Below are positions 7,082 to 58,757 of a DNA stretch of 62,622 bases, piece by piece. The notes beneath the pieces were generated by a model. The model searched no databases. It saw nothing but the letters and a program-made list of their open reading frames with translations, and was not told where the DNA came from. Position numbers and translations under genes: made by a program. This DNA is from Nemertoderma westbladi (Eukaryota > Animalia > Xenacoelomorpha), in assembly GCA_032718475.1 (NCBI GenBank), contig JAUCBJ010005048.1:1-62622 (forward strand), written 5' to 3'. Positions within the stretch are counted from its first letter, which is position 1, and each line of letters opens with the position of its first letter.

Positions 7082-7254
7082 TACTTATGACTCACTTTGC
7101 ACCACTTGTGACTCACTTTGAACCACGTGTGACTCATTTTGGATTGTACTACTTGTGACTTAACTATGACCTACTTAATGACTTAATGAATCTACTTGAA
7201 AAGATTTGAAGATAATATATAGGTTAACTTACCATTTACCATAATTTAACTAAC

Positions 7255-7382
7255 CTCAAGGTATTCACGTTCCTGAACTCCGGGCTTATTTTCTCTGGTT
7301 TGCTACAAGTATAGTGAAATATTGCAGCATAGGTTAAAGCCGGTAGGTTTCTCCTGTCCGCTTTTTCGAAACCGGCCTCCAT
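7255..7382 (-). pseudogene. first coding exon of a SWIM/YqaJ-exonuclease-type transposon accessory protein (ISL2EU/Kolobok-like); copied at 16763-16890
   Basis: Translates MEAGFEKADRRNLPALTYAAIFHYTCSKPEKISPEFRNVNTL and ends at an AG|GTTAGT donor. GF.KA...NLP and EFRNV.T resemble, from memory, the N-terminus of transposon-associated SWIM-YqaJ proteins. Confidence 0.5.
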
Positions 7383-7584
7383 TACACCTTGATGGTAACT
7401 GTATAATAACTTTTACTTGTACCGCTGTAGCCACTATTGAAAAAAAAATGCTCCTTAAAATTCTAGAATTTTTACCAGCTAGCTAAATAACTAGACAAAA
7501 AAACTAAATAATTTCCATCTAGTGCTAATCTACCGATCCCGCATTGTTCGCTGTAAAACCGATTAAAAAATCGATTAATGAAAC

Positions 7585-8756
7585 TGTTCGCGCTTTCAGA
7601 CCTTTAGCAGTTTAACCTGCCAAATTTAGATGTCTTCTAGATTATAAATCGACTTTAGCATATGACGAGTATTTGATACACTACATTAGCCGAAGCCAGT
7701 CTATGCGCGACCATTCACCCGCTGGATATACCCGGGAGACTGGATTCGGAAGCTTTGACCTTATTGCGGTGTAGGCCTACTGTATTATTCGACTGATTGT
7801 TAATATATAATCTCTGACCAATATTATTCACTTTCGGGAAATATTAACAGTTCCTTTAGGACGTGGCGCTCTAAATATGTAAACAGAGTTATGACTTACA
7901 CTAGACACAACGGGATGGCTATGGATTCACGTATAAAGCGCATTCTTTAGGAGATGCTTCGTTATCAGTCACAATCATGCACACTACCGCACAATGCTGC
8001 ACACCGATCTGCCGACCTTCACTAATTTTAGTCACATATAAAGAGAACAACCACTGACTCATGTAGTGCCTATGAAATAGCATTAGATTCACTCCAAAAC
8101 CAATATAATGTAAGTCGCAATTGTTATATGTAACCGGTCTCTCTAACCTTCAGTATATCAAGAAGATTGGGGTTTCTGATTATTTAGCGATATTATCCAA
8201 TATAATAATATTCCATCAACTGATATAATTAATAACCGACAGTAAATAGCAGTAAAAATGCGGTGTTTTGGTTTGATATTGATTAGTTTGTATTGGTTGT
8301 TTGTTTGTGTGATAACGGTTATACGTTCTATGATCAAGCCTACTAATGTTTTGCTAAAGCCTGAAAAACACAGAGATTCCAAAGCCGGTCTTCTGGCATC
8401 AGGAAAAAATGTCAACATAAACAGTAATGCATTGCGCGATTTCCCGGAGGTTTCTGTACAAATAACAGGAGAATCGCTCTGATTGGTTGTCCGAACAAAG
8501 GAACAAAGAAAAAGCTACACGTGTACAGATCAGCTGTTAGCCGTCGTCATAGTAACTACACTGTGTCAAGAGGATTTTAGCGTATTGCGACATAAAATTG
8601 CTAGTTATGTCCGCTAAAGTACACATACAGAAGAAATGGCTTTTTATGTTCACTAAAACACCAGTACAGTAAGGAAACGGCTTTTTATGTCCGTTAAACC
8701 AACTACAGAGTACTTTGCGGGGAAAATAACCAGCTAATTCCGCAAAAGCTGTTACA
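7585..8756 (-). repeat. 3' LTR of element A (1172 bp)
   Basis: Begins tgttcgcg and ends ttaca; essentially identical to 17093-18264. Confidence 0.93.
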
Positions 8757-11833: not shown

Positions 11834-14800
11834 TTAAGTTGGGGAGTCCCTAGATGTTTGTTGGATTAGGGAGGTGGTCGTGGGAAGAGTATCTTGCCTT
11901 CCATAGTTTCCGGAGAGTTCTCTGTCTCTTTCCAGTAAACATAAACGACCAACTGGGCGATTGAGCTGCTGTGTCTCGAAGACAATTCCCGGTTTCTTGA
12001 AGTTACGTCGCATGACGACGAGTTCTACCGATCGCACCAAACCATCATCCGAGATGTGAGTCTCGATGATACGACCTGTCTGCCACCGCTTACGTGGAAG
12101 ATCTGAATCCACAATAAGGACCATGTCTCCAGCGCTGACGTTTTCTTGCTGCGCAAACCACTTAGTTCGAAGTTGTAGCGTGGGCAGATAATGTTTTTCG
12201 AAATGGTCAGCGAAACGACGGGATAACAACTGCATAAGTTGCCAAGTTTGCCGGCAGTATTCGTCTCCGTCTGTGATTTCCGATCGTGGGAGCATGGCTA
12301 CCGGTTTCTTCAGTAGGAAGTGCGCGGGTGTTAGCGCTTCCAGGGAATCGGGACTCGATGAGACTGGCATAAGCGGTCTCTCGTTGAGATAGGCGGCGAT
12401 TTCCTTCATTAACGTCCGCAAAAGTTCATCGGTGAGATATGCGCGGCACGGCACTATGAAGTGAAATGCGGTCTTCACGCTCCTGATTAATCTCTCCCAA
12501 CTTCCTCCCCACCAAGGGGCATCGGCGGCGTTAAAGGTCCAGCTAGATGCTGTTACCCTTAGCTGATCGTCCACCTGTCTTTGGTTCCAATCTTTGACGT
12601 AAGCTTTGATTTCATTGTTGGCACCAATGAAGTTCGTTCCCTTATCAGATCTCATCGTGTTACTAGTTCCAAAGCGAGCGATCTGTCGTCGTAAGCTCAA
12701 TAGGAAGCTGTTGGTCGATAAATCGTTCACCATATCGAGATGGATAGCTTTGTCATACAAACAAAGATGACACACCATCTCTTGACTATAGTCCTAGCAC
12801 GATATACTTCAATAGGGCCAAATAAATCTACACCGGTATTAGTAAAGGGTGGTTCATAGAAGCTTACTCGTTCCCTAGGTAATTCTGCCTCTCGCTGTGT
12901 TAAAGGCCTACTGAATGCTTTCCTACAGGGTATGCAGTTCCTAAGAACTTGGTTCAGAGCTCTACGGGGTTTATAAAAATAATAGCGTGTTCGAATTTCG
13001 CTAAGAACTCGTTCTCTACCAGCATGATAAAGTTTGCTGTGAACATCTACAATCATCTTGATTTGTATTTCAAGATTTCTAATGAGTATGGGAAACTTGG
13101 TGTCAAAGGATAATGGAGCATTAGTTAATCTTCCTCCAACACGTATCAACCCATCTATCATTGTGCTAGAGAAACGATCCCTTAAGCGCATCTGTGGATT
13201 TCTCAACAACAGGAAATACTTATCGGAATCCTCATAGCATTGCAGGAGTCTCAGCATCTGCTTGTTGGTTTCTTCATGCTCCTGATAACTGATCTTCTCC
13301 TTCAGAAACCTGTCGGATATCTTATATTTGGGAAGATCTTTACCAACATGGACCTGCACAGATGTCAGTGGAGCGGTATCACTATTGGTCTTCGCCCTGG
13401 AGTAATGATGATGAAAACATCGTTTTAAATATGTAACGGCCTTACAGAGCCGGTTCCAGGAACTGTAGTGATATATCGCTCTCTGTAGGAGAGGTGAGAG
13501 TCCTTGCGAGACGTCTGGTATTCCAGATTTCCAATCCCTCTCTCTGATTTCCACAACAGACTTATTTGTGGCTGTGGGTTTCGGATCCAAAGCGTCGTCT
13601 CCGGAAGTGTGTAGTACAGACAGATCTACCACGGGTTTAAATAACTTCGATTTACTCGCCCGAGTTTTAGGTTTGACTTTCTCCGCTCCCTTGGCCTGTC
13701 TAATCTCTGCCGTAGTAAGATGAGGAGGCCATTCATCCTCTTCTTTGCTTAGGAAGTCGGGTCCACCTAACCAGTCTGGAGTATCTATCAGTTCTTGTGG
13801 AGTTGCTCCCCTGGAGGCGATGTCTGCTGGATTAATCGTTCCGGGGCAATGTCTCCATTGATCCATCTTCATGCGACTAAGTATAATGGCTACTCTGCTG
13901 GTAACGAAGACGCTGAACTGACAGACTTCATTGGTTATATACTCCAACACGAGTAAAGCATCGGTCCAATAGACAGTTTTCTCCAGTGGATAGTCGATCT
14001 GTTCTGTTACATTCCGGCCGATGGCTGTAGCGTATAGAGCCGCTTTTAACTCCGCTCGAGGAACTTTCAACTTGTTGTTTATCAATGCCTTAGAGGTAAC
14101 TAAGGCGACTTTGATTCCATCCGGAGTTTCCACTCTTAGGTAGGCTACTATACCTATTCCCATATCGCTGGCGTCTCCAAACACATGGAGTTGATAGGAA
14201 TACGTAGGGAGAACATGACCAAAATATGAACGGGAAATTATAAAGTTCTCGATGGCTGGTAGAGAATCTTCCCATTTCATCCACTTCTTTAATAATTCTC
14301 CCTTAAGTGGATCGTCCCATGAGTGGTTTTCAAGCCACATTTGTTGTACTAAACTCCGAGCAATCAATATAACTGGGCTAATAAATCCCAATGGATCGAA
14401 ATAAGTGCTCAGGATACTTAAACAAATCCGTTTAGCCGAACTGGATTATCTCGCTGTTTTAGCTGGAAAAACAGTATATCTCTCTCTGTGTCCCATTTCA
14501 AACCAAGTGTCTTGGTTTCTGGAAGATCATCTTTAATTAGGTCTAGGTCTTTCGCTCCTCGATCTTCTACCGGGATCGATTCCAGAAACTCACGGGAGTT
14601 GCTGGTGAATTTAGTTAATCGAAATCCACCTCTTTTTAAGCACTCTACCGTTCCTTTGGCGACATCAATGGCTTCTTCCACAGATGGAAGGGACTTTAAA
14701 TTATCGTCCATGTATATATCCCGTTTGATGTTGTCGATCACCTCTTTTGAGAAGGCATCCCGGTTGTCATCAGCAGTGGTGCGCACCACTGAGCAGGCGT

Positions 14801-16252
14801 TTGAAGGGCTTGAGATGATCCCAAAAGCCTGGATGGTCATCCAATACTCCACCGGTTTCTGGTTGAGGTCTCCTTCAGGCCACCACAGAAATCGTAGGCT
14901 GTCTCGATCCCTATCCAGCGCCTTGACTTGTAAGAACATGCCTTCTATATCGGAGGCGAAAGCGATTGAATATTGTCGTAATCTTAAGAGTATTCCCAAT
15001 AAGGATTGGAGTAAGTTGGGTCCTGGTAACAACTCGGAATTAAGGGATTGGCCCATGTAGAGGGCGGAGCCGTCGAATACTACTCGTACCTCATGAGGTT
15101 TACCGGGTTTGGGAACGTAATGATGTGTTAAATAGTACGTTCTTTCAGTTAGGGGTGTTCCTTCCGGTACTCGCTCCGCATATCCCTTATTAATAAATTT
15201 CTTCAACTGAGTCTGATACATTTCTTTAGCTGAAGCATTTGCCGTAAGGCGTCGATGTAGTTGAGCAATTCTTTTCTCCGCCAAGGGTCGGTTGTTTATG
15301 AATTTTGGTTCTCGCTTTCGGAATGGGAGACCGATTTCATATCTACCTTGATCTTTGAGAAAACGTGTAGTTGTCTCCTGGATCTGCTTGGCTCTTTCTT
15401 CTTCTACTGATAGGGCCTTATCGTAGGAATTGGGCTCCGCCGCCTCTTGAGTAAAGAATCGTACGGCGTGTTCATCTCGAGTTTTCGCGTTATATCTATC
15501 TATTACTTCATTCAGTTCGTCGTTATAGTCGACTCGTCTTGATGGACTAATGACTTGACATAGGTTCACTTGGTTTTGCCAAGTCTCATTTTCCGTAAGC
15601 ATATCAATGGTATTCTCCTCTTCGAAGAGCTGGTGGATATCGTCATTATCTGAGGAGTATGGTGTTCCCTCAGTTGGGTCGTCAACTTCACTGCTCTCCA
15701 CTTCCCATTCGCTTAATTGATATACCTGTTCTTTTGGTAATCTTTCCATAAGAGTTCTACGGGAAGGGCCAGTAAAGTACCAACCTACTCTAGTTCTTCC
15801 CGCATAGACTTGTAATGGTTGCGGTTGAGCAGGCCGTTTCTCCAATGTCTCAAGCGCTTCATGCGCATTTTGGCCGATGAGTATTTGCACTCCAGGGTAA
15901 TCCGTGTTGAATCTAGGTATATTAAGCTGCTGGGTGGAATCGTCCTCATCCCAGTTATAAGGTTCTACTTGGCTGGTAGCGAAGTTCTTTATTGCCACCA
16001 TTTTTACTGACCTTATACTATGTTCTCCTAGTTCATCCTGGGGGGTGGACAACGCACCTACATAATAATCCGCTATTACTGTAGATTTCCAAACCTGCAT
16101 AATTCCTGACATGTTTAACTTAGTTCGGAACTTGGGTTGTCCAGCAAAGATGTCTTCGGCTAGTTCTTTGTCGATGAATGTTCCTGTGCTACCGGAGTCA
16201 AGGAGGGCGTTCACTATATAACTCCTTTTAGGTCCGTGGACCCTCAACTGTA
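11834..16252 (-). pseudogene. pol: BEL/Pao pol (protease, RT, RNase H, integrase), two frameshifts
   Basis: LLDSGS (protease); VRVVFDGSA, DIEGMF, DIYMDD (RT); HVFGDAS, PRAELKAA, YWTDA (RNase H); H..H..CIPC, GVDLFGP, SDKGTNF, WWGGSWER (integrase). Split over ORFs 14418-16586, 12727-14391 and 11834-12778. Confidence 0.93.
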
Positions 16253-18264
16253 CTTTACGGAACCCATTCTGATTTCCACGGAGCAGTCTCTCAATGGGAT
16301 CCCTGATGCGATTTAATAGAATCCTATTGTATAGCTTTGCAGCAATCGAGATCAATGAGATTCCCCGAAAAGAACCATAGAGTGTTAGGTTGCCCTTCTT
16401 GGGAACTGGCACCAACTTATTTGTTTTCATTTCTTGTGGGACTCTTGTTGTTCGGTACATGTCTACTATGATGGGATAGATGAGCTTTAAACACTCAGGT
16501 ATTTTAAATACCTCAGGGGGAACACCATCTACTTCTGCAAAGGAGATATCGCCAATGGGAATATCTGGGAGTACAGACTCAGACACTTTTACTTATGACT
16601 CACTTTGCACCACTTGTGACTCACTTTGAACCACGTGTGACTCATTTTGGATTGTACTACTTGTGACTTAACTATGACCTACTTAATGACTTAATGAATC
16701 TACTTGAAAAGATTTGAAGATAATATATAGGTTAACTTACCATTTACCATAATTTAACTAACCTCAAGGTATTCACGTTCCTGAACTCCGGGCTTATTTT
16801 CTCTGGTTTGCTACAAGTATAGTGAAATATTGCAGCATAGGTTAAAGCCGGTAGGTTTCTCCTGTCCGCTTTTTCGAAACCGGCCTCCATTACACCTTGA
16901 TGGTAACTGTATAATAACTTTTACTTGTACCGCTGTAGCCACTATTGAAAAAAAAATGCTCCTTAAAATTCTAGAATTTTTACCAGCTAGCTAAATAACT
17001 AGACAAAAAAACTAAATAATTTCCATCTAGTGCTAATCTACCGATCCCGCATTGTTCGCTGTAAAACCGATTAAAAAATCGATTAATGAAACTGTTCGCG
17101 CTTTCAGACCTTTAGCAGTTTAACCTGCCAAATTTAGATGTCTTCTAGATTATAAATCGACTTTAGCATATGACGAGTATTTGATACACTACATTAGCCG
17201 AAGCCAGTCTATGCGCGACCATTCACCCGCTGGATATACCCGGGAGACTGGATTCGGAAGCTTTGACCTTATTGCGGTGTAGGCCTACTGTATTATTCGA
17301 CTGATTGTTAATATATAATCTCTGACCAATATTATTCACTTTCGGGAAATATTAACAGTTCCTTTAGGACGTGGCGCTCTAAATATGTAAACAGAGTTAT
17401 GACTTACACTAGACACAACGGGATGGCTATGGATTCACGTATAAAGCGCATTCTTTAGGAGATGCTTCGTTATCAGTCACAATCATGCACACTACCGCAC
17501 AATGCTGCACACCGATCTGCCGACCTTCACTAATTTTAGTCACATATAAAGAGAACAACCACTGACTCATGTAGTGCCTATGAAATAGCATTAGATTCAC
17601 TCCAAAACCAATATAATGTAAGTCGCAATTGTTATATGTAACCGGTCTCTCTAACCTTCAGTATATCAAGAAGATTGGGGTTTCTGATTATTTAGCGATA
17701 TTATCCAATATAATAATATTCCATCAACTGATATAATTAATAACCGACAGTAAATAGCAGTAAAAATGCGGTGTTTTGGTTTGATATTGATTAGTTTGTA
17801 TTGGTTGTTTGTTTGTGTGATAACGGTTATACGTTCTATGATCAAGCCTACTAATGTTTTGCTAAAGCCTGAAAAACACAGAGATTCCAAAGCCGGTCTT
17901 CTGGCATCAGGAAAAAATGTCAACATAAACAGTAATGCATTGCGCGATTTCCCGGAGGTTTCTGTACAAATAACAGGAGAATCGCTCTGATTGGTTGTCC
18001 GAACAAAGGAACAAAGAAAAAGCTACACGTGTACAGATCAGCTGTTAGCCGTCGTCATAGTAACTACACTGTGTCAAGAGGATTTTAGCGTATTGCGACA
18101 TAAAATTGCTAGTTATGTCCGCTAAAGTACACATACAGAAGAAATGGCTTTTTATGTTCACTAAAACACCAGTACAGTAAGGAAACGGCTTTTTATGTCC
18201 GTTAAACCAACTACAGAGTACTTTGCGGGGAAAATAACCAGCTAATTCCGCAAAAGCTTTTACA
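16253..18264. repeat. about 2.0-kb direct duplication of 6745-8756
   Basis: LINE 5' part, minisatellite tail, spacer and LTR recur at a constant offset of 9508 with near-complete identity. Confidence 0.95.
17093..18264 (-). repeat. LTR of element A, configured as a solo LTR
   Basis: GAAAC lies immediately on both sides (17088-17092 and 18265-18269). Confidence 0.9.
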
Positions 18265-35052: not shown

Positions 35053-35374
35053 GTTGTAGAAGTTATCCATAAGACTTGGTTAGGTAGGATTAGCGATGAA
35101 CAAACAGCAATCACTAGTCGTCCCATACAATTACGAACGACAGTATGAAGATAGTTAATGGTCAGCTTCTTTGCAAAAATATATATTTGGCATTAATCAA
35201 AATAATTACATAGCGCGGGGAGATGATGGTCTACGCTTTTGTCTACCTCCACTGGTTATCACGTGCGCTTCATGTACAAGCTATCTCTAGTCCAAGCTGT
35301 GTTCTTCATTTTGAAAATTATCTCTAGACTGGGACGTGAGCTAATATGTACATTGTGCAAAGCGATATCAGTAT

Positions 35375-37892
35375 CCTTCATGTACAAAGCTATCTCTATA
35401 CCAACCAGTATACTTCATGTACAAAGCTATCTCTAGACCGAGTTGTGTCCTTCATGTACAAAGCTATCTCTAGACCGAGTAGTGTCCTTCATGTACAAAG
35501 ATATCTCTAGACCGAGAAGTGTTCTTCATGTACAAAGCTATATCTAGACCGAGAAGTGTCCTTCATGTACAAAGCTATCTCTATACCAACCAGTATACCT
35601 CATGTACAAAGCTATCTCTAGACCGAGTAGTGTCCTTCATGTACAAAGATATCTCTCGACCGAGAAGTGTTCTTCATGTACAAAGCTATATCTAGACCGA
35701 GCAGTGTCCTTCATGTACAAAGCTATATCTAGACCGAGCAGTGTCCTTCATGTACAAAGCTATCTCTAGACCGAGAAGTGTTCTTCATGTACAAAGCTAT
35801 ATCTAGACCGAACAGTGTCCTTCATGTACAAAGCTATTATCTAGACCGAGCAGTATCCGTCATGTACAAAGCTATATCTAGACCGAGCAATGTCGTCCAT
35901 GTAGTCTACAAAGCTATCTCTAGACCGAGCAGTGTCGTCCATGTAGTCTACAAAGCTATCTCTAGACCGAGCAGTGTCGTTCATGTACAAAGCTATATCT
36001 AGACCGAGCAGTGTCGTTCATGTACAAAGCTATATCTAGACCGAGCAGTGTCCTTCATGTACAAAGCTATATCTAGACCGAGCAGTGTCCTTTATGTACA
36101 AAGCTATCTCTAGACCGAGCAGTGTCGTTCATGTACAAAGCTATATCTAGACCGAGCAGTGTCGTTCATGTACAAAGCGATATATCTAGACCGAGCAGTG
36201 TGCTTCATGTACAAAGCGATATCTAGACCGAGCAGTGTCTTTCATGTACAAAGCGATATCTAGACCGAGCAGTGTGCTTCATGTACAAAGCGATATCTAG
36301 ACCGAGCAGTGTCTTTCTTGTACAAAGCGATATCTAGACCGAGCAGTGTCTTTCTTGTACAAAGCTATCTCTAGACCGAGCAGTGTGCTTCATGTACAAA
36401 GCGATATCTAGACCGAGCAGTGTCTTTCTTGTACAAAGCGATATCTAGACCGAGCAGTGTCTTTCTTGTACAAAGCTATCTCTAGACCGAGCAGTGTCCT
36501 TCATGTACAAAGCTATCTCTAGACCGAGTAGTGTCCTTCATGTACAAAGATATCTCTAGACCGAGAAGTGTTCTTCATGTACAAAGCTATATCTAGACCG
36601 AACAGTGTCCTTCATGTACAAAGCTATTATCTAGACCGAGTAGTATCCGTCATGTACAAAGCTATATCTAGACCGAGCAGTGTCGTCCATGTAGTCTACA
36701 AAGCTATCTCTAGACCGAGCAGTGTCGTCCATGTAGTCTACAAAGCTATCTCTAGACCGAGCAGTGTCGTTCATGTACAAAGCTATATCTAGACCGAGCA
36801 GTGTCGTTCATGTACAAAGCTATATCTAGACCGAGCAGTGTCCTTCATCTACAAAGCTATATCTAGACCGAGCAGTGTCCTTTATGTACAAAGCTATCTC
36901 TAGACCGAGTAGTGTCCTTCATGTACAAAGCGATATCTAGACCGAGCAGTGTCGTTCATGTACAAAGCGATATCTAGACCGAGCAGTGTGCTTCATGTAC
37001 AAAGCGATATCTAGACCGAGCAGTGTCTTTCATGTACAAAGCGATATCTAGACCGAGCAGTGTGCTTAATGTACAAAGCGATATCTAGACCGAGCAGTGT
37101 CTTTCTTGTACAAAGCGATATCTAGACCGAGCAGTGTCTTTCTTGTACAAAGCTATCTCTAGACCGAGCAGTGTCCTTCATGTACAAAGCGATATCTAGA
37201 CCGAGCAGTGTCTTTCTTGTACAAAGCGATATCTAGACCGAGCAGTGTCTTTCTTGTACAAAGCGATATCTAGACCGAGCAGTGTGCTTCATGTACAAAG
37301 CGATATCTAGACCGAGCAGTGTGCTTCATGTACAAAGCGATATCTAGACCGAGCAGTGTCTTTCTTGTACAAAGCGATATCTAGACCGAGCAGTGTGCTT
37401 CATGTACAAAGCGATATCTATACCGAGCAGTGTCTTTCATGTACAAAGCGATATCTAGACCGAGCAGTGTCTTTCATGTACAAAGCGATATCTAGACCGA
37501 GCAGTGTGCTTCAAGTACAAAGCGATATCTAGACCGAGCAGTGTGCTTCATGTACAAAGCGATATCTAGACCGAGCAGTGTCTTTCTTGTACAAAGCGAT
37601 ATCTAGACCGAGCAGTGTCTTTCTTGTACAAAGCTTTCTCTAGATCGAGCAGTGTCTTTCATGTACAAAGCTATCTCTAGACCGAGCAGTGTTCTTCATG
37701 CACAAAGCTATGTCTAGACCGAGCAGTGTCCTTCATGTACAAAGCGATATCTAGTCTGAGCAGTGTCCTTTATGTACAAAGCTATATCTAGACCGAGCAG
37801 TGACTTTCATGTACAAAGCTATCTCTAGACCGAGCAGTGTTCTTCATGCACAAAGCTATGTCTAGACTGAGCAGTGTCCTTCATGTACAAAG
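35375..37892. repeat. 37-bp satellite (atgtacaaagctatctctagaccgagcagtgtccttc), left part
   Basis: Tandem units; higher-order duplication at offset 790 (35778 vs 36568); interrupted by element B. Confidence 0.96.
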
Positions 37893-39022
37893 TGTTCGCG
37901 CTTTTAAGACCTTTGGCAGTTTAACCCGCCAAATCTATATGTCTTCTAGGTTATAAATCGAATTTAGCCTATGACAAGTATTTGACACAAATAAATCCAA
38001 CATTAGCCGAAGCCAGTCTATGCGCGACCATTCACCCGCTGGATATACCCGGGAGACTGGATTCGGATGCTTTAATTTGATTGCGGTGCAGGCCTACCGT
38101 ACTATTCGATTTGATCGTTAATATATAATCTCTGACAAATATCATTCACTTTCGGGAAATATTAGCAGTTCCTTTAGGACGTGGCGCTCTATCTATATAA
38201 ACAGAGCTATGGCTTACACTAAACACAACGGAATGGATTATAAGTTACACATAAGGCGCATTCTTTAGGAGATGCTTTGTTACGCGGACAAGCACATACA
38301 GACCATTGCACACCGCTGCACACTGAATTGCCGATAGTCACTGATTTCAATCATATATAAAGAGAATAGCAACCGACATTTGTAGGGCCTATAAAATAGC
38401 ATTCAATTCACTACAAACCACGATAATATAAGTCGCAATTGCTATATGTAACCGGTCTCTCTAACCTTAGTGTATCAAGAAGATCGGGGTTTCTGATCGT
38501 TTATCGTTATTCTCCAAATAACAATATGTAAACAACTGATACAATTAATAACAAACAGTAAATAGCAGTAAATAATGTGCAATACGTACCGGTAACAGTT
38601 ATGTGTTCTTATAATTAAAGCCGTTCTAATGCTGGAATAATTCCATAGCCGATGTTCATGGCATCAGGAAAACCAACACACTGAACCCTGTGCGCTGTTG
38701 CAGGTAGCTTTCAACACAAAGAGGAAAAGCTCTCATTGGCAGAGCTCCATATTCCACAGATTCCACGAATGTCTAAATGCCGAACTATTCGGGTTTTTGC
38801 AGCCCTTAGCCAACACACAGGATGAATCACTCTGCTTGGTTGACCTTGCTCTGGTTGGTTGATCGAACAGAACAAAGAGGCCATACGTACAGCAAATCAG
38901 CCAATCAGCCGGTAGCTTGCACCATTTGAGTTAGGGAGTTTTTCTTTAGAGTATTTGAGCGCATTAAGGGAAACTGGATTGCGAAGCAAAAGGGCCAGTT
39001 ATATCCCACAAAAGCTTTTACA
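37893..39022 (-). repeat. 3' LTR of element B (1130 bp)
   Basis: TGT...ACA ends; direct repeat of 49241-50364. Confidence 0.95.
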
Positions 39023-42243: not shown

Positions 42244-45200
42244 TTACGTTATGGAGTCCCTAGATATTTGTTGGATTAGGGAGGTGGTCGTGGGAAGAGT
42301 ATCTTGCCTTCCATAGTTTCCGGACAGTTTTCGGTCTCTTTCCAGTAAACATAAACGACCAGCTGGGCGATTGAGTGGTTGTGTTACTTTCTCCGCTCCC
42401 TTGGCCTGTCTAATCTTCGCCGGGGTAAGATGAGGAGGCCATTCATCTTCTTTATTTAGGAAGTCGGGTCCACCTAACCGGTCTGGAGTATCTGTCAGTT
42501 CTTGAGGAGTTGCTCCTCTGGAAGCGATGTCGGCTAGATTAATCGTCTCGGGGCAATGTCTCCATTGATCTACATTGGAGTTAATATCGTCATTATCTGA
42601 GGAGTATGGTGTTCCCTCAGTTGGGTCGTCAACTTCACTGCTCTCCACTTCCCATTTACTTAATTGATATACCTGTTCTTTTGGTAATCTTTCCATTAGA
42701 GTTCTACGTGAAGGGCCAGTAAAGTACCAACCTACTCTAGTTCTTCCCGCATAGACTTGTAATGGTTGCGGTTGAGCAGGCCGTTTCTCCAATGTCTCGA
42801 GTGCCTCATGCGCATTTTGACCGATGAGTATTTGCACTCCAGGGTAATCTGTGTTGAATCTAGGTATATCAAACTGCTGGGTGAAATCGTCCTCATCCCA
42901 GTTATAAGGTTCTACTTGGCTGGTAGCGAAGTTCTTTATCGCCACCATTTTTACTGACCTTATGCTGTGTTCTCCTAGTTCATCCTGGGGGGTGGACAAT
43001 GCACCTACATAATAATCTGCGATTACTGTAGATTTCCAAACCGGCATAATTCCTGACATGTTTAACTTAGTTCGGAACTTGGGTTGTCCAGCAAAGATGT
43101 CTTCGGCTAGTTCTTTGTCGATGAATGTTCCTGTGCTACCGGAGTCAAGAAGGGCGTTCACTATATAACTCCTTTCAGGTCCGTGGACCCTTAGCTGCAC
43201 TACGGGAAATTCTCGGATTCCTACATTGGAAGTTGGTGCTTTCCAAGGTGGTTGTCGGTCAGAAGTAGTAGGGGGGAGCTCGCTGTCGGTGTCCTTTTCA
43301 TACGTAAGTGCTCGATACACTGCAGTATTTATCAGGTAACAGGATTCGTTTTCGTCGGAGAATTTGTCCGTATAGAATCCTTCCATCTCAGAATATTGGT
43401 CAGTGTCGTTCACATCACTGAATTGGACATGTAGTTCGGACTCACTTACCTGACTCGGGCTGTTTCGTTCGAATTCCGTGTGCAACAAGATATGATGTTT
43501 TGCGCCGCACTTTGCACACCTTGCGTCGGAGTAACAGGTTCGCCGTTGGTGTCCTCGTCTGAGGCAATTATAACACAACCGCTTATCCCACATGACTTCA
43601 CGTCTGTCCTTTAGTGATTTCCTCAGGAATTCATCACACGCACTTAAACGGTGGGGCCCGTCGCACAGCACACATTTTGGTTTGATGTTACTTACCTTAC
43701 TTTGAGTAACGTTGTGCACACTCGTTCTTTCCTCGGGCTTTCTTACATGAATTCTCTTAGGGGACGTAGGAGGAGTTTTTCTTACCTGTTCTCTCCTGTC
43801 ATTGGTTCGAGACTTGAATTTACTTACGTCCTTAGGCGCTTTGTTGTCATAGTAAGATCTTTCAGTGTCTTTCCCGCTATCCTCTCCTTGAGAAGTCTGG
43901 CTTTCGCCGTCGTTGGTATAACACACTGGTATTACCTTTCTCCTAGAAACGAGTTTCTCACTTACCTTATTTTCCGGTGTCTTCTCTCTGGACTGTTTTA
44001 GGAGCTGTAATTTCACTTCTCCATCTAAGAATGACATGAGATCAGCCATGGTAGGGTCTCGTCGTTGTTGTTCCATCATATATAACACTTTCTTATCCCA
44101 GCGTGTACCTACTCCACCCTTCGGTAAAGTAGAAGCCACGGCTCCAATGACCATAGAACTCTGATATTCATGAGACTTACCTAACCAATCTAATTGTCTA
44201 CAGATCTCTTGAATCTCATCGGAAAACTCTATTATCCCGCTGCTAATGAACTTTCGGGGCGCTACTAATTTTGCATACAAATATCTAGCTATGTTATTCC
44301 TATTACCATACCTGATGTTTAGTGTATCCCAAACTTGTCTTAATCCGTCTGGATGTCCAATAAACTTTAACGCCATTAACTTGGGCAGTTGGGAGATCCT
44401 TCCAAGCACTCGATGAGGAATCTAAGTTTCTCTCCGTTAGATAGCACAGAGTTCTGTATGTTATCTTTGTAATATTCATTAAAAGGTAACCATTTCATCT
44501 CATCTCCATTGAACTTGACGATCTTTCCCACCTTTACCGCTTGATGGGCTTCGGTTCTAGCCATTTATTTAATATCGAGTTATCGGTATATAAATTTCTC
44601 GGATTATGATCAGGTCTATAGGGAATATCATTATCAACAGGTCTATAATTACCCTTAATAGGGTTCACTATAGGAGTTTCTACTTCGCTAGCAGTATAGA
44701 TGCGTGTAGGCTCCACACCTTGCGCATGAAATACTTCAGACCTAACAGGTTGACACATTGTTACAGGGGGTGGTGGTATACCCTTTTGTGTATTTACTAA
44801 TTTATCGCGTTCTAATGCGATACTTTGCTGCACTTCTTGCAACTCTAACCTACTTTCCCTAATTGTTCCCTTTAACTGCTGCATAGTTCCCTCCATCTCC
44901 TGGGCCTGCTGAGAGGAGCGAGAATGTTGTTCCCTCAGCTGTCCGAGCAGGAGACCCATCTCCCGTCGTCCCTCATCTACCCACTCGACCGCCGAAGCGG
45001 GAGGCGCCAACGTTGTAGCGGGCAGACGAGGGACAACGGGCGACAAATCATTATTATTTCGTTTGGAGTCCAGGACATGAACATTTTCAAGGGTGGTTCT
45101 GTGGGGCACAGGTAGCTTCGTGCTGTGCAGAGGGAATTTAGAGGTAGGTTCAGGGAGTACAGGTGTCTCTATCACCGAAGGGGTGGCTTCGAGAACAGGC

Positions 45201-46860
45201 CTAATTATTTCAGGCTCATCTACTATAGTAGGGAGTCTTTCTATGTTAATTATTTGGTCTGTGGGTTCTGTACTACCTAAGTCTGTGCTAGCTAGTTGCC
45301 TTCTAACAGCTGGGGGCAAATCAGGCAATTTCTGACGGTGGGAAATTCTTTTACGTCTGCTTAGGCGAGATCGATTTCCTCCGCCTTCAGGATCGGTGGT
45401 ATCGCCTTCCTCAGATGATGTATATCCCTGTCTTTTGGGAGTTGATCGACTCATCATCTGCATATTACTAGCTGTTAACTGTTTATTGAAGTTGTCTTGC
45501 CTCTCTTGAAGATTTTCCAACTCTAGTTGGGTTGTCTCTTCAGATGCCCTCTGTTCTGCTTCAGCCACTGCCTCTGCCACTGCCACTGCCGCTTTTCTTT
45601 CCGCTTCTGCCGCTGCCACTGCTGCTGCGACTGCCGCTTTTCTTTCCGCTTCTGCCGCTGCCACTGCTGCTGCCACTGCCGCTGTCTTTCTATCTTCTAT
45701 ACGTTTTTTCTTTACTTGTTCTTCTTGAACCTTAGCGATGCGGATGCTTTCATCAAATTTAGCTTGGTTCGCAGCTATCCTATCCACATCGATTGCGTCC
45801 AACACAAGCTTGGCTCCTTCACTATTAGGGCTAAGTCCGTCTAGCCTTCTCCTCAACTCTTCATCACCTAAAAAACGTTGATAGTCTGACAGATAGATGT
45901 CAATGGCATCCCTCTTATGCGGTTTCTCTGCCGTCGCTTCACTTTCCACTTGGGAAAAAGTAGCGTCTGTTGATTCTCCATGGGTTGAGCGCTCATCCAG
46001 CTGGGCTTTCCACTGAGCCGTTCCTTGCACCTGGAGACTCACCCGTTGAAACCAAGTCTTTACGGCAACTTGCAACGACGTGTCTTGTCTTCTTTTAGAA
46101 GCCTCCTCAAAGGCCGATAAGATTAGCCTGATTCGTAGAATTCTTTCTCTAACTTGATAAAGCAGCTGTCCCTGCTCTTGAGGTCCTTGGGGTTGTTGAA
46201 ACAGTTGTTCTTCTAATCGCTCCATGGAGCTGAAGAATCCCTGTACGTATCCAGCTCGGACCTCTTCCACACAGCTGGATCGATGGTTTCCTTGGTTACT
46301 CCCATCCTGTGTATGTCTTCCCAGGCAGCTTCTGATAAATCAAACGGGAGTCCGGGTCCGGGGAAGTTCCATTGCGACTCGACAATAGACTTCAGTTCTT
46401 CCCTTGTGTATCCCGCATAACTATCTTTAGTCGATCTCTTATTTCTCGCCCAATCGATCTGGTGTTCTTCCACCGCAATCAATAACCTAGTGAGTACGGC
46501 TGCAGGAAGGATGAGAAGGGGGTCCGAATAAACCGCATCTGTCATCTTTGCGCCGTGCTCGGGTGTCAGCTCTACAGTATCCGCACTACTGGAGCTGTCG
46601 GGCCGCTGAGAAATAAGTTCTTGGCTCACGGGTTGTTGCTGTTCTGCTGCTTCTTGGTCCCGCTTGACCTGAGCTCGAGTGCCTATGATAGACCTACGAT
46701 GTTGGACTAGCCTAGGGTCTGATATTACTACTGGAGGGATGATCTTTCTTACAGTAGGAGGTGAGTTGAACTTCGGTCCCACATGTTCCACACTCCTGTC
46801 TGGGTCACATATGGTTGTATCTAGGAGACTGTCTGATAGGTTTTGTTTTGTGTCAGACAT
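42244..46860 (-). pseudogene. gag: BEL/Pao gag-protease with pol remnants, frameshifted
   Basis: KFNGDEMKWLPF...EKLRFL capsid region; triple knuckle CVLCDGPHRLSAC / CYNCLRRGHQRRTC / CAKCGAKHHILLH; LLDSGS protease; three frameshifts (about 46250, 44550, 44400); internal 45-bp Ala-rich repeat. Confidence 0.92.
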
Positions 46861-46984
46861 GTTGATTTGTACAGTTGAATGCCTACTGCTATATTACAGT
46901 TTAAGCAAGTCTAGTAATTCAGTATCACTGTTAGTCTAGTAATTAATTACCGATACTGCTACTCAGTGTAGCGTGATATATATA

Positions 46985-47370
46985 CAATACATTAGAATAC
47001 CGGTATGCTTATAGTATATATATAAGTATTATTACAGACTAGGTTTGTCACAGAATACCGGTATATAATTCCAGCACAAATATATATAAATATATAATAG
47101 GCCTATCGTGGATACCGGTATGCAGTTTACACTTATAGTATATATAAGTATAATTATTAACTAGAATTAATTACAGAATACCGGTATAATTTCAGCCTAA
47201 ATTTATAAATATATAATAGGCCTATCGTGAATACCGGTATACAGCTTACACTTATAATGTATATATATAAGTATAATTACAGACTAGAATTAATTACAGA
47301 ATACCGGTATAATTTCAGCCTAAAATTTATAGAAATAAATATAATAAGCCTATTGTAAATACCGGTATGT
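46985..47370. repeat. about 120-bp degenerate tandem repeats in the element B leader
   Basis: Recurrent agaataccggtat and aatatataataggcctatcgtg blocks, about 3 copies. Confidence 0.8.
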
Positions 47371-48321
47371 CAATTATTTTAGAATAATTGAATTTCTGAA
47401 ATTTCAGGGGTTACTTAGTTACTTTAACTTACTTTATTACCGCTATTTAAGCAGTAGTCCAACTGATATTTAGACCTAATTGATGTATGGCAGGCCTACT
47501 ATTTATAAATCGTTTGAGTTGATTTATAATATATATACCCGTTAAAATAGGTTTTTTGTCAATATTTGAAATAAATGTTATTATTTCTGGGGGGAGTCAC
47601 TACACAGAAGCTGTGCGCTCTCAGTGGAGTGCTACTTGTTGGACACTAAAACAAATAATTCTAATTTACCTAAGTTACTTAATACTACAAATTACCTACA
47701 ATTCGGGGTGAGATTACAATCTCTAAGTAAACATAAAAATTTACAAGTACGAATTTTTAGGGTAATTTTACAAGAAGTCTACAAACCAGCCTAACAAAGG
47801 GTTAGAATATCTGGTTATTACAACGGACAGGTTACTACGGTATTTGAAAATAATAAGTAGTAGTAAATATACTGCGTTGTCCAGATAGAAAAATACCACC
47901 GTCTGACGACTTATAGCCGTGGCGCTATAAGTACTACGTTATGTATCACGGAGTGTTCCTACCTAGAAGTTAATTACCGCGGTCTACCAGAACCAACGTG
48001 CCTATTAACCACTTTACAACACAAATATACTGCCTACACACTAATCACCTTCGGAAAGCACTGTACACTAAACCCTAAATTAGGTACAAGTACTTATACA
48101 ACAAATAATCAGTAGTTAAAAATACTTGAACAGCTAAAAGAACCACAGTATCTGCTGGAGTGACCGGGGCACAAAATCACCAGTCTTTACCTATGCCAAG
48201 CAGCCCTGATGTAGTACCGGGGTTAGTTTAACTATAACGGTATATATAACAAGCACAATTACTGTAGGAATAAACTTAGGGGTATGAATGTTGCGAATAA
48301 TCGCATAAACTCTGAATAATA

Positions 48322-48895
48322 AATATTACGCTACGCGTACAGACTACTCAAACAAAATGCAGACCAAATGCTGACAGACTACCGTCAAGCCCAAACAAAC
48401 TACGGTATATGCAGACTCCGAAATGGTTAGTTAGTATGCGTTCTAACCCAGTAGTACGACTTATTCTTTCGAGGGGGTTTACCTCACAGCTCTGGAAGCC
48501 CCTACATTCCCAACTGGCACTTTATCGGACATACACTCTACACACACCGAAATCTCTCAAGACCTAACAACAGCCAGACAACAATCCAGCCTACAAATTA
48601 TCTAAATAAGAAATATTACGCTACCCGTACAGACTACACAAACAAAGTACAGACCAAACGCTGGCAGACTACTATCAAGCCTAAATAAACTACAATATAT
48701 GCAGACTCTGAAATGGTTAGTTAGTATGCGTTCTAACCGAGTAGTACAACTTATTCTTTCGAGGGGGTTCACCTCACAGCACTGGCAGCCCCTACTTTCC
48801 TAACTAGTACTTTTTCGGACATATGCTCTACACACACTACAGCCCCTTCAGACTTAACAACAGTCAGACAACAGTCTAGCCTACAAATTGTCTGT
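48322..48895. repeat. about 291-bp tandem duplication in the element B leader
   Basis: aatattacgctac.cgtacagactac at about 48322 and 48613, colinear to gcctacaaatt. Confidence 0.88.
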
Positions 48896-49229
48896 ACAAT
48901 CTGAGCAGGCTTACACGCCTTCTGCTCAATATTGGCCTACAAATAAATAAAACTTGACAGAAATAAGTAAAATCTCAATAAAAAACCAGGGCGGGCCCTC
49001 CCTGATTCAATATTAAGGCCTACCGGTATATAATTATCAAATCGAATAATACTGCTGTACCTGTACTGCTGTAGGTACCGGTCCGGGTTGTTAGGTTGTC
49101 AGGCCTACTAGGTACCGGTTGTCCGGTACTTCAGCGTTATTGCCTACTGCAATACAGAAGCTATATCTGTTATTGTTCTTACCAGAACAATAGTAAACTG
49201 TATTTATTGCCTACACTGCAATCAGAATT

Positions 49230-49240
49230 ATAACTGTTAC
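49230..49240 (-). promoter_or_regulatory. PBS-position 11-mer GTAACAGTTAT, complementary to an LTR-internal 11-mer (candidate self-priming site)
   Basis: Abuts the 5' LTR with no TGG; exact reverse complement of the LTR 11-mer at 49940-49950 (and 38592-38602). Confidence 0.6.
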
Positions 49241-50364
49241 TGTTCGCGCTTTTAAGACCTTTGGCAGTTTAACCCGCCAAATCTATATGTCTTCTAGGTT
49301 ATAAATCGAATTTAGCCTATGACAAGTATTTGACACAAATAAATACAACATTAGCCGAAGCCAGTCTATGCGCGACCATTCACCCGCTGGATATACCCGG
49401 GAGACTGGATTCGGATGCTTTAATTTGATTGCGGTGCAGGCCTACCGTACTATTCGATTTGATCGTTAATATATAATCTCTGACAAATATCATTCACTTT
49501 CGGGAAATATTAGCAGTTCCTTTAGGACGTGGCGCTCTTTCTATATAAACAGAGCTATGGCTTACACTTAACACAACGGAATGGATTATAAGTTACACAT
49601 AAGGCGCATTCTTTAGGAGATACTTTGTTACGCGGACAAGCACATACAGACCATTGCACACCGCTGCACACTGAATTGCCGATAGTCACTGATTTTAATC
49701 ATATATAAAGAGAATAGCAACCGACATTTGTAGGGCCTATAAAATAGCATTCAATTCACTACAAACCACGATAATATAAGTCGCAATTGCTATATGTAAC
49801 CGGTCTCTCTAACCTTAGTGTATCAAGAAGATCGGGGTTTCTGATCGTTTATCGTTATTCTCCAAATAACAATATGTAAACAACTGATACAATTAATAAC
49901 AAACAGTAAATAGCAGTAAATAATGTGCAATACGTACCGGTAACAGTTATGTGTTCTTATAATTAAAGCCGTTCTAATGCTGGAATAATTCCATAGCCGA
50001 TGTTCATGGCAAAACCAACACACTGAACCCTGTGCGCTGTTGCAGGTAGCTTTCAACACAAAGAGGAAGAGCTCTCATTGGCAGAGCTCCATATTCCACA
50101 GATTCCACGAATGTCTAAATGCCGAACTATTCGGGTTTTTGCAGCCCTTAGCCAACACACAGGATGAATCACTCTGCTTGGTTGACCTTGCTCTGGTTGG
50201 TTGATCGAACAGAACAAAGAGGCCATACGTACAGCAAATCAGCCAATCAGCCGGTAGCTTGCACCATTTGAGTTAGGGAGTTTTTCTTTAGAGTATTTGA
50301 GCGCATTAAGGGAAACTGGATTGCGAAGCAAAAGGGCCAGTTATATCCCACAAAAGCTTTTACA
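49241..50364 (-). repeat. 5' LTR of element B (1124 bp)
   Basis: Direct repeat of 37893-39022, followed by the TSD. Confidence 0.95.
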
Positions 50365-51283
50365 CAAAGCGATATCTAGTCTGAGCAGTGTCCTTCATGT
50401 ACAAAGCTATATCGAGACCGAGCAGTGCAGTGTCTTTCTTATACAAAGCGATATCTAGACCGAGCAGTGTCTTTCTTGTACAAAGCGATATCTAGACCGA
50501 GCAGTGTGCTTCATGTACAAAGTGATATCTAGACCGAGCAGTGTCTTTCTTGTACAAAGCTATCTCTAGACCGAGCAGTGCCCTTCTTGTACAAAGCTAT
50601 CTCTAGACCGAGCAGTGTCCTTCATGTACAAAGCGATATCTAGACCGAGCAGTGTCTTTCTTGTACAAAGCGATATCTAGACCGAGCAGTGTGCTTCATG
50701 TACAAAGCGATATCTAGACCGAGCAGTGTCTTTCATGTACAAAGCGATATCTAGACCGAGCAGTGTGCTTCATGTACAAAGCGATATCTAGACCGAGCAG
50801 TGTCTTTCTTGTACAAAGCGATATCTAGACCGAGCAGTGTCTTTCTTGTACAAGCGATATCTAGACCGAGCAGTGTCTTTCTTGTACAAAGCGATATCTA
50901 GACCGAGCAGTGTGCTTCATGTACAAAGCGATATCTAGACCGAGCAGTGTCTTTCTTGTACAAAGCGATATCTAGACCGAGCAGTGCCCTTCTTGTACAA
51001 AGCTATCTCTAGACCGAGCAGTGTCCTTCATGTACAAAGCGATATCTAGACCGAGCAGTGTCTTTCTTGTACAAAGCGATATCTAGACCGAGCAGTGTCT
51101 TTCTTGTACAACCGATATCTAGACCGATCAGTGTTTTTCTTGTACAAAGCTATCTCTAGACCGAGCAGTGCCCTTCTTGTACAAAGCTATCTCTAGACCG
51201 AGCAGTGTCCTTCATGTACAAAGCGATATCTAGACCGAGCAGTGTCTTTCTTGTACAAAGCGATATCTAGACCGAGCAGTGTC
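50365..51283. repeat. 37-bp satellite, right part
   Basis: Resumes in register after the CAAAG TSD. Confidence 0.96.
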
Positions 51284-56482: not shown

Positions 56483-58183
56483 TCAATAATTAAGCTTTGT
56501 ATTTTGGTTGTAGAAAAATACTTTTTTGGTTAACGTTGTTTTCGGAAGAGAAACCTGTTTGGATAGATCGACGAAAGTCGCGTTAGTCATCCTACGATTA
56601 ACTTCAGTAAGAATCGAAATCAGATCGTGTTTATTGGCAAACTCGTCGATACAATTACACAACTCCTTTATGTAATATCCTCTATAGGACAAGTGACCAG
56701 GCGTGGTTGAATGGGCGATTAGGAAGTCCTGCTCCGATGCGACGTAATGCGATGGGGCCCCGACGCTGTCAGTCGGAGGCAGTTTTGCGCTCTCCATAGA
56801 CTTCAGCCCCATGCAAGCCTGGAAAAAGAACATTTTTGGTTTCCTCGCCAATTGAGGACAAACTGTGGCTTGGAAGTGCCTGGTTAATTGAGAGTATTCA
56901 ATAGGTATTCCGTCGGATCCATACAGAAACCCATCCCTTCCATGTGTCATTACGAAACAAACAAACGAGTCGCAATCGTTGTGCCTTGGATCGCGAGAGA
57001 GTTCACAGAAAACGTCATTGAGAAATATCGCCGACAAATCGTTCGCCTTTGCCACGGTGTAACCAAGCTTTGTGAACGTTTTCTCCAGTCTTTCGACATC
57101 TTCCTCACTTCCTACTCTGTCCTCTAAATCTTCGTCATCTGAATTCGTTTTCGTAAAGTGATAATTGTTGATTATAAGACACAATCCATGAGGATTTTTG
57201 AACATATCATATTGAAGGTCTGGCCCTTCGCGGGAGGAAGGCTGATCTTCCTGAACAGATTTACTGTCTGCATCGCGATGTTGGTTTCCAAACATTACCT
57301 CAGTGAACGATAATTCGTTGACCCCTGTCGAAGGGGCAGCTTTATTTTGTCTTTCTCGCGTCTCCTCCTGATACGATTGCCTCGCTTCACTGACAACAAT
57401 ACCCATATTTCCATGACGACACTGTGCAAACCAAACACTTCCGGTATATTTGTCCACTTTAGCCTGTGTCTGTCTTAGATGAGCGTTTGCGCCCACAAAA
57501 TCAGCTAAGACAGAGACATCCTTCTCGCTAATGATTCTAGACTTTTCTAGAACGCGTATAAGTCCTATAGTATCGGCAACATCATCCCAATCACAACGAG
57601 GTGCCACGGAACGCCCTGTCCGACATATACACTTGAAATCTTCGAAATCCTTCTTGGTAAAATCTTTAATAACCTCGTAAAGTAGTGCCCGATACGGCGA
57701 GAAGTAGGTGAAGGGATTCTGATGGATTTTGTTATGTATTTTTAAACGATCCGTATTGAATATTTGAAGTAGGTCCATTCGTACCACCATGTAGAGAAGT
57801 ATCTCTAAAAATCCCGTGTTATTCTCAGCAATGAGTCCTGTTTGGCAGAGTTCTTGGAACAGTTTCAATCCCGAATCAATTTCCTCCATTCTATTCTCGT
57901 CGATTTTGTCGGAACACAAGAACTTCATGTGTCGAATGTCGCGTCGCTTTAGATTGTTGGCCACTCGTATTAGTTGGGTTTGGAAAGTTCCGTGGTCGAT
58001 CCTTGCCGCATCCACTGGGGGATTATTCACATGGCCTCTCTCGGAAGGTGAAGAATCGTCATGTACAACGTTTCTCATAGTTGCCATTACTAAACGAAGA
58101 CGTAGTTGTTGTTTAAACAACGTCTTATTGTAACCGAGTAATGAACAATGTTTATTAATTTTAGGCTTTTCATGTACACTCAT
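56483..58183 (-). CDS. casp8: caspase-8/10-like initiator caspase with tandem DEDs, single coding exon
   Basis: 566-aa ORF with DED motifs (MKFLC, RMDLL, SPYRALLYEV, LEK), GLCLIINN, CFVMTHG (catalytic His), KPKMFFFQACMG (catalytic Cys), DFLIAHST, TLTKKVFF; cag acceptor immediately before the ATG. Confidence 0.93.
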   Translation of the reverse strand: MSVHEKPKINKHCSLLGYNKTLFKQQLRLRLVMATMRNVVHDDSSPSERGHVNNPPVDAARIDHGTFQTQLIRVANNLKRRDIRHMKFLCSDKIDENRMEEIDSGLKLFQELCQTGLIAENNTGFLEILLYMVVRMDLLQIFNTDRLKIHNKIHQNPFTYFSPYRALLYEVIKDFTKKDFEDFKCICRTGRSVAPRCDWDDVADTIGLIRVLEKSRIISEKDVSVLADFVGANAHLRQTQAKVDKYTGSVWFAQCRHGNMGIVVSEARQSYQEETRERQNKAAPSTGVNELSFTEVMFGNQHRDADSKSVQEDQPSSREGPDLQYDMFKNPHGLCLIINNYHFTKTNSDDEDLEDRVGSEEDVERLEKTFTKLGYTVAKANDLSAIFLNDVFCELSRDPRHNDCDSFVCFVMTHGRDGFLYGSDGIPIEYSQLTRHFQATVCPQLARKPKMFFFQACMGLKSMESAKLPPTDSVGAPSHYVASEQDFLIAHSTTPGHLSYRGYYIKELCNCIDEFANKHDLISILTEVNRRMTNATFVDLSKQVSLPKTTLTKKVFFYNQNTKLNY

Positions 58184-58757
58184 CTGCTCAAGCCAAAAGA
58201 ATTACATGAACATGGAAATATAGGTTTTCAAAATAGATTTAACTAAAATTTTAAATAAAAGTACACTAATTATAATCTGCAATAATTATGAAATAAAATA
58301 TTATAATATACACTATATTATATAGGCCTACTATACTTTGTACAAATAAAATGAAATAAACATCTTCTTTATAATATTAAACTACTTCGCGTTTCATATT
58401 TTGGCTATGGCATAAGGTTCGATTGTACCTACACATGATTCATTACTTGCCAACATTGTATTTTCCAGGTTAATAAAAGACAGTCAGTGCTTGGGGAAAT
58501 TACGAGGAGATATAACCAATTGGAGTTTACCACCGCCCTCTGATATTACTGTTGGCTTATCAATAATGAGACATTACTCAACTATATCATAACAGTACAA
58601 ACACAAATGGCTCAGTACATAGAAATCTAATTTCGAAAGCATTAATTCAGTAATTAAAACTAATGTATGCTGAGTGAGTAATAGTAATTATGAACATAAT
58701 GTATCCTTAAGGGAGGAGGGGGGGTGGGGGGGTTACCCCTTGCCTTTTTTTTCATCA

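Follow-up and report, generated by a model that had tools for sequence, protein, structure and literature searches.

Probable self-primed reverse transcription in a BEL/Pao retrotransposon of Nemertoderma westbladi

Self-priming, in which a retrotransposon starts reverse transcription from its own RNA, is given for the Tf1/sushi group, for Tcn1 and for the TAR lineage of copia in the accessible parts of the papers that treat it (PMC4600332, PMC6934838, PMC7175516, PMC6317226). As far as that material goes, Tf1 primes with its first 11 bases, and RNase H cuts between bases 11 and 12 (PMC7175516). Three duplexes are needed, namely that of the primer site and two between site-adjacent sequence and the LTR downstream of the primer (PMC10085805, in its available portion). 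Copying carries the primer into the end of the cDNA, the reverse transcriptase adds non-templated bases, and the Tf1 site starts with ATAAC (PMC11042837, likewise in part). For the plant elements Tcn1 (Ty3/gypsy) and TAR (Ty1/copia), the accessible text predicts self-priming from complementarity of at least 10 nt lying 0-5 nt after the LTR (PMC6317226).

In the ICTV description of Belpaoviridae, the primer site is 18 nt long and complementary to tRNA-Arg or tRNA-Gly, genomes measure 4.2-10 kb, and the replication of these elements is called poorly understood (PMC8742986). The BEL/Pao element Achilles has a tRNA-Tyr site according to the available part of its description (PMC4580426). Literature searches listed no report of BEL/Pao self-priming; subscription papers, Repbase reports and supplements could contain one. 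The accessible portions of PMC3601003 and PMC8220671 hold nothing on the subject, and PBS and tRNA go unmentioned in the main texts of the Sinbad paper, the metazoan BEL/Pao survey and the Troyka paper. Self-priming is therefore a known mechanism that appears unreported in BEL/Pao.

The stretch of DNA analysed here, referred to as the window, is 62,622 nt long and contains two elements, A and B. Judging from its sequence, element B likely primes minus-strand DNA synthesis with a segment of its own RNA and not with a tRNA. B is a young, pol-deleted BEL/Pao element of 12,472 nt on the minus strand (50364-37893), with the following parts:

49241..50364, minus strand: 5' LTR of B, 1124 nt, with TGT..ACA ends
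44534..46893, minus strand: two overlapping ORFs (226 and 601 aa) that precede the gag domain and have no Pfam match
42244..44421, minus strand: ORF with DUF1759 (below the curated cut-off), zinc-knuckle and protease-like motifs; the RT/RNase H and integrase stretches are absent relative to A
37893..39022, minus strand: 3' LTR of B, adjoining the polypurine tract without a spacer

The element is flanked by a target duplication of CTTTG and sits in an array of a 37-bp satellite (35369-37892 and 50364-51283). Its two LTRs are identical at 1118 of 1124 positions and differ further by one 6-nt indel. Gag- and protease-like sequence is kept, and two pol stretches present in A, of about 1.77 and 1.70 kb, are absent. 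Because B measures 12.5 kb even without this roughly 3.5 kb of pol, a parent near 16 kb is implied, which exceeds the 4.2-10 kb range of Belpaoviridae (PMC8742986). At 42244-43201, the two pol gaps leave gag-protease in a single open frame, which continues into the final pol codons of the element. B is possibly a propagated non-autonomous form. Its interior further includes a 2.3-kb leader with tandem repeats of 290 and 123 nt, an Ala/Glu-rich repeat in the two ORFs at 44534-46893, and a 3-kb stretch after pol. The rest of the window is filled with other satellites (36, 21 and 228 bp) and inverted-repeat elements. Near the latter, at 56483-58201, lies a single, apparently intron-less ORF of 572 codons with death effector and caspase domains, similar to caspase-8.

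Element A supplies the pol region for comparison and a second type of LTR:

17093..18264, minus strand: upstream LTR of A, with GTTTC on both sides, a motif variant at 17830-17820 and its primer site lost
11834..16253, minus strand: pol part of A in three frames, with protease/RT, Pao RNase H (PF05380), integrase (PF17921) and DUF5641
7585..8756, minus strand: 3' LTR of A, with a motif variant at 8322-8312

A lacks its 5' interior, and its upstream LTR is followed by the same 840-nt non-element flank as its 3' LTR. The segments 6745-8756 and 16253-18264 form a near-identical duplication of 2012 nt, consisting of A's LTR and 840 nt of a flanking RT-bearing element, whose ORF (5582-7084) carries RVT_1 and DUF6451. 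Acidic RNase H motifs, which we take to be catalytic, are visible in the ORF of A.

The family is assigned to BEL/Pao by its pol domains, and the missing tRNA site is the departure from the usual pattern. Profile searches matched PF05380 (3.8e-36), PF17921 (2.2e-7), PF18701 (4.9e-21) and PF03564 (1.1e-4, below the cut-off). As in Belpaoviridae, a Pao RNase H region, an integrase, DUF5641 and a DUF1759-like gag are present, the order is PR-RT-RH-IN, and TG..CA LTRs, a polypurine tract and a short target duplication (5 nt) are found. In contrast to tRNA-primed members such as Achilles, B has no tRNA-type 18-nt site and spans 12.5 kb. A profile search found no chromodomain in the window element, which thus carries BEL/Pao domains and not those of the Tf1/sushi group. 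Among the matches listed, homologues with the same domains come mostly from aquatic animals, and no close protein relative appears (the best reaches about 48% over parts). The viral collection yielded no relative by protein and six sequence-pattern matches without similarity to the element, and the exact LTR pattern is absent from the metagenome contigs. In a quick tree that held no named reference elements such as Sinbad or Suzu, the window RT forms a long branch without placement.

The case for self-priming begins at the junction of the 5' LTR and the leader:

49230..49240, minus strand: primer-binding site position, GTAACAGTTAT, with no spacer and no TGG; variable among copies
49940..49950, minus strand: 11-mer in the 5' LTR at LTR position 415, exact complement of GTAACAGTTAT; predicted self-primer

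A sequence-only reading had proposed that the 5' LTR of B is followed without spacer by an 11-mer whose exact complement lies in both LTRs, that a TGG-starting tRNA site is missing, and that a homologue of the motif persists in A. These observations were confirmed. The site occupies 49240-49230, its exact complement occurs within the whole window only at 49950-49940 and, in the 3' LTR, at 38602-38592, and the first TGG stands at +57. The homologue in A is ATAACCGTTAT (8322-8312, with a second copy at 17830-17820) and differs from B at positions 6 and 11. The same reading had placed the motif close to the switch from divergent to conserved LTR sequence and had noted extra AGAA pairing. The motif lies about 15-25 nt upstream of the start of conservation (49925), in the divergent part. 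Since AGAA lies upstream of 49950, the extra pairing is possible only if transcription starts further upstream.

A match of at least 11 nt to the LTR at offset 0 arose in 12 of 20,000 dinucleotide shuffles (0.0006); for offsets 0-3 the value is 0.0031. Within the interior of B, 14 of 10,178 positions have an LTR complement of at least 11 nt, forming six separate sites with the primer site included. The motif is nearly palindromic: of its 11 positions, 8 are self-complementary in B and 10 are in A. Consequently, just three positions in B separate a reverse complement from a direct copy, and all three fit the reverse complement. No tRNA gene was found in the window, and there is no credible Rfam match in 46900-50400. 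Both LTR types carry AG and then AAC 5-6 nt upstream of the motif (49957-49950 and 17837-17830), which may serve as a splice acceptor or belong to an initiator. AATAAA is absent from both LTR types, and no TATA box is common to A and B.

This arrangement resembles that of Tf1, Tf2 and Tj1 of the Tf1/sushi group (Ty3/gypsy chromoviruses), for which the accessible accounts likewise describe an 11-nt site directly after the LTR CA and complementary to an LTR segment. B also has the Tf1-type combination of a site 0-5 nt from the LTR with at least 10 nt of LTR complement (11 nt at offset 0). In the available text, the same combination is the criterion by which self-priming is predicted for Tcn1 and TAR, which belong to other superfamilies. 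B differs from Tf1 in being BEL/Pao and in the roughly 700 nt that separate the motif from the LTR end, and its start site and cleavage are putative.

Variation among copies adds a second line of evidence. Six sequencing runs from four studies contain the stretch or part of it, none of them recorded as RNA; the one run of presumed RNA origin covers neither the site nor the motif. The contigs aligned over 49195-49280 number 252 in run X1, 174 in X2, 114 in X3 and 10 in X4, the last of which lack most of the site; X1 and X2 represent one sample and may be the source of the window. The LTR-leader junction of B is the normal structure of the family; many contigs, from runs belonging to two studies, span it. 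The site varies at 5 of its 11 positions. A change at 49240 is present in 26 (X1), 16 (X2) and 8 (X3) contigs and in most of the aligned depth, although depth sums do not equal copy numbers. This change is the complement of the letter at position 11 of A's motif, so that B carries the rarer allele, which matches its own LTR. The commoner allele starts with ATAAC, as does the Tf1 site in the portion of the literature available. A central change complementary to position 6 of A's motif appears in three loose-end rows, among 22 of 52 listed (four contigs in X1, one in X2 and one in X3), and in these three rows the LTR end, too, has A's form. Both A-matching changes are transitions. Further variants occur at site positions 8, 10 and 11, and neither LTR type, A or B, carries a letter that corresponds to them.

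The prediction that A-type LTRs would be accompanied by a correspondingly altered site is therefore borne out in part. Both A-matching changes exist among the copies, but their pairing with A's motif is indirect: the primer site of A itself is missing, the link runs through the LTR end only, and no contig holds both motif and site. Small insertions accumulate at one edge of the site:

49222..49231, minus strand: region at the distal border of the site, rich in small insertions among copies (10 of 12 listed indels, at the distal end or just past it)

Within 49195-49229, the listing contains no substitution that reaches 1%.

Fold predictions place the site between two helices, an arrangement reminiscent of the three-duplex layout in the available Tf1 literature:

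49426..49441, minus strand: predicted LTR arm of helix X, with a pair probability of 0.95-1.0 and 0 of 200 shuffles as good
49209..49224, minus strand: helix X, leader arm (predicted), pairing with 49441-49426
49363..49375, minus strand: predicted upstream arm of helix Y, lying in sequence that A and B share unchanged
49244..49259, minus strand: helix Y, LTR-end arm (fold prediction)

Helix X comprises 15 pairs with one mismatch, and the homologous segment of A would pair with the leader of B (2 of 200 shuffles as good). Helix Y has a probability of 0.36-0.68; shuffles were as good in 35 of 200 cases in B, which is not significant alone, and in 9 of 200 in A. Bases 1-6 of the site are predicted to be unpaired at 0.78-0.93, and opening the site has a computed cost of 3.5 kcal/mol, compared with 11.7 gained from the primer duplex. 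In global folds with a longer leader, the probability of primer pairing is just 0.01-0.29, owing to competing helices; the proposed pseudoknot cannot form in the program. At 49135-49227, the leader of B holds the helix-X arm in two related versions, spaced about 70 nt, and some contigs join across one. In relatives, a helix comparable to X is not a general feature: across 15 loci, 5-96 of 100 shuffles were as good.

The relatives were drawn from a scan of metagenome contigs, which gave 79 loci (from the best 80 of 492) with 31-45% identity in the best segment. In 14 of them, the 5' LTR end is fixed by two copies, and removal of one duplicate left 13; the other loci were left out as too short, circular or lacking a 5' LTR end. 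A self-complementary site of 10-15 nt is found in 12 of the 13, across a predicted LTR splice junction in ten and contiguous in two. At offsets 0-3, nine carry a site that pairs over 10-15 nt with a GT..AG junction of the same element's LTR (0-7 of 300 shuffles), two have contiguous matches of 10-11 nt (5 and 0 of 500 shuffles) and two have no match. The offset was widened to 0-5 afterwards, which added L084 with a 12-nt match. L037, whose LTR end is uncertain, has no self-complementary match. All 11 unconstrained matches at offsets 0-3 start with GT or AT, as in the window, while TGG stands at offset 0 in none of the 13 relatives and at +2 in one. When LTRs and leaders of different loci are combined, 13 of 182 pairs attain 10 nt, six of them within a group of three closely related families. 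A blind scan covered eight further loci, with a purine-T start and the donor pattern imposed; five gave spliced matches (0 of 200 shuffles each) and three none. The match offset (0-4 nt) broadly tracks the spacer at the polypurine tract. No TATA-like box was evident by eye 30 nt upstream in the relatives.

The predicted LTR introns have GT..AG borders, measure about 76-186 nt and would leave an exon junction that is the complement of the primer site (L009, L014, L015, L026, L050, L071, L073, L077, L082, L084, L007, L019, L024, L044 and L064). The primer segment of most relatives spans a predicted splice junction, a layout that the accessible text does not give for Tf1. A splice-made primer was also considered for B and rejected, as its best spliced match is 10 nt (22 of 300 shuffles) against 11 contiguous. 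In the quick tree, primer types do not cluster beyond shuffles (82 and 88 of 500). The long, unplaced branch of the window RT makes these relatives distant ones, and shared ancestry of the self-complementary trait is plausible.

Self-priming of B would proceed as follows. Helices X and Y would hold the primer site open in a loop, to which the 11-mer would anneal as a pseudoknot. The duplex stops exactly at the LTR border, and there, at its 3' end, the element's RNase H would cut the RNA, leaving a 3'-OH. Plus-strand synthesis would later copy the primer, which would keep site and primer in step and leave variable extra letters just beyond the site. The variable distal edge may reflect such copying together with non-templated bases as in Tf1, or else the partial copying of LTR sequence that precedes the motif. 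B, in which RT, RNase H and integrase are absent, would have been copied in trans or would have lost them after insertion. The proposal of tRNA-independent self-priming is thus supported by the site variants, the predicted Tf1-like helices and 12 of 13 relatives, but the transcription start at 49950 that had been expected with it is not required. The relatives seem to use a primer segment internal to a spliced RNA, and with the match spanning a predicted splice junction in ten of 13 relatives, a start far from the 11-mer is compatible with self-priming. The odds are about even between an 11-mer that forms the extreme 5' end of the transcript, as in Tf1, and one that lies within a longer 5' fragment.

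Helices around the primer site are also found in tRNA-primed retroviruses, and the pairing in B could be real but serve packaging, dimerisation or a conformational switch, with the motif mediating RNA-RNA kissing and something else acting as primer. The self-complementarity of 8-10 of the 11 motif bases and the competing helices that displace the pairing in long folds agree with such a role. It is nevertheless unlikely, given that the duplex stops exactly at the LTR border, that the offset in relatives follows the polypurine-tract spacer as expected of primer-end geometry, and that the site has no other primer candidate. Priming by half of a host tRNA, by a tRNA fragment or by some other small RNA of the host, with the LTR match as a by-product, has a precedent in the half-tRNA priming that the available text describes for Ty1/copia lineages (PMC6317226). 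However, a host primer would be expected to reset the site in each cycle, yet five positions vary; the site also differs between families in a way that matches each family's own LTR. Together with the lack of a tRNA in the window and of an Rfam family in the leader, this makes a host primer very unlikely.

Two further explanations treat the complementarity as incidental. The palindromic core TAACNGTTA occurs also at window positions 4 and 61422, and a DNA-binding site of this kind, present twice, would merely resemble a reverse complement. This is highly improbable, as the three asymmetric positions in B match the reverse and not the direct form, including B's rarer allele, and the matches of relatives are mostly non-palindromic and arise only after splicing; site changes that are compensatory rather than parallel are partly seen among the copies. 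That a genuine tRNA site of B was lost by rearrangement, leaving a match due to chance or local inversion, might be suspected from the deleted pol and duplicated leader segment of B and from the rearranged state of A. The recurrence of the same LTR-leader junction across many contigs and two studies largely refutes it, and the near absence of TGG at the corresponding position in relatives also speaks against it, so that this explanation is extremely improbable. Priming by the element's own RNA remains the likely reading for B.

With regard to the wider group, the evidence leans towards a broad swath of aquatic BEL/Pao elements having dropped tRNA priming, mostly in favour of a splice-assembled LTR primer, with the intron-less window family convergent on the three-duplex layout and ATAAC start of Tf1. 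Since the family is abundant in the host's sequencing runs and its site is variable, the mechanism is testable by observation alone. If it is true, self-priming would have originated in a third LTR superfamily, and primer sites missed in annotation would be explained. The elements would be freed from the tRNA supply and presumably also from silencing by tRNA fragments.
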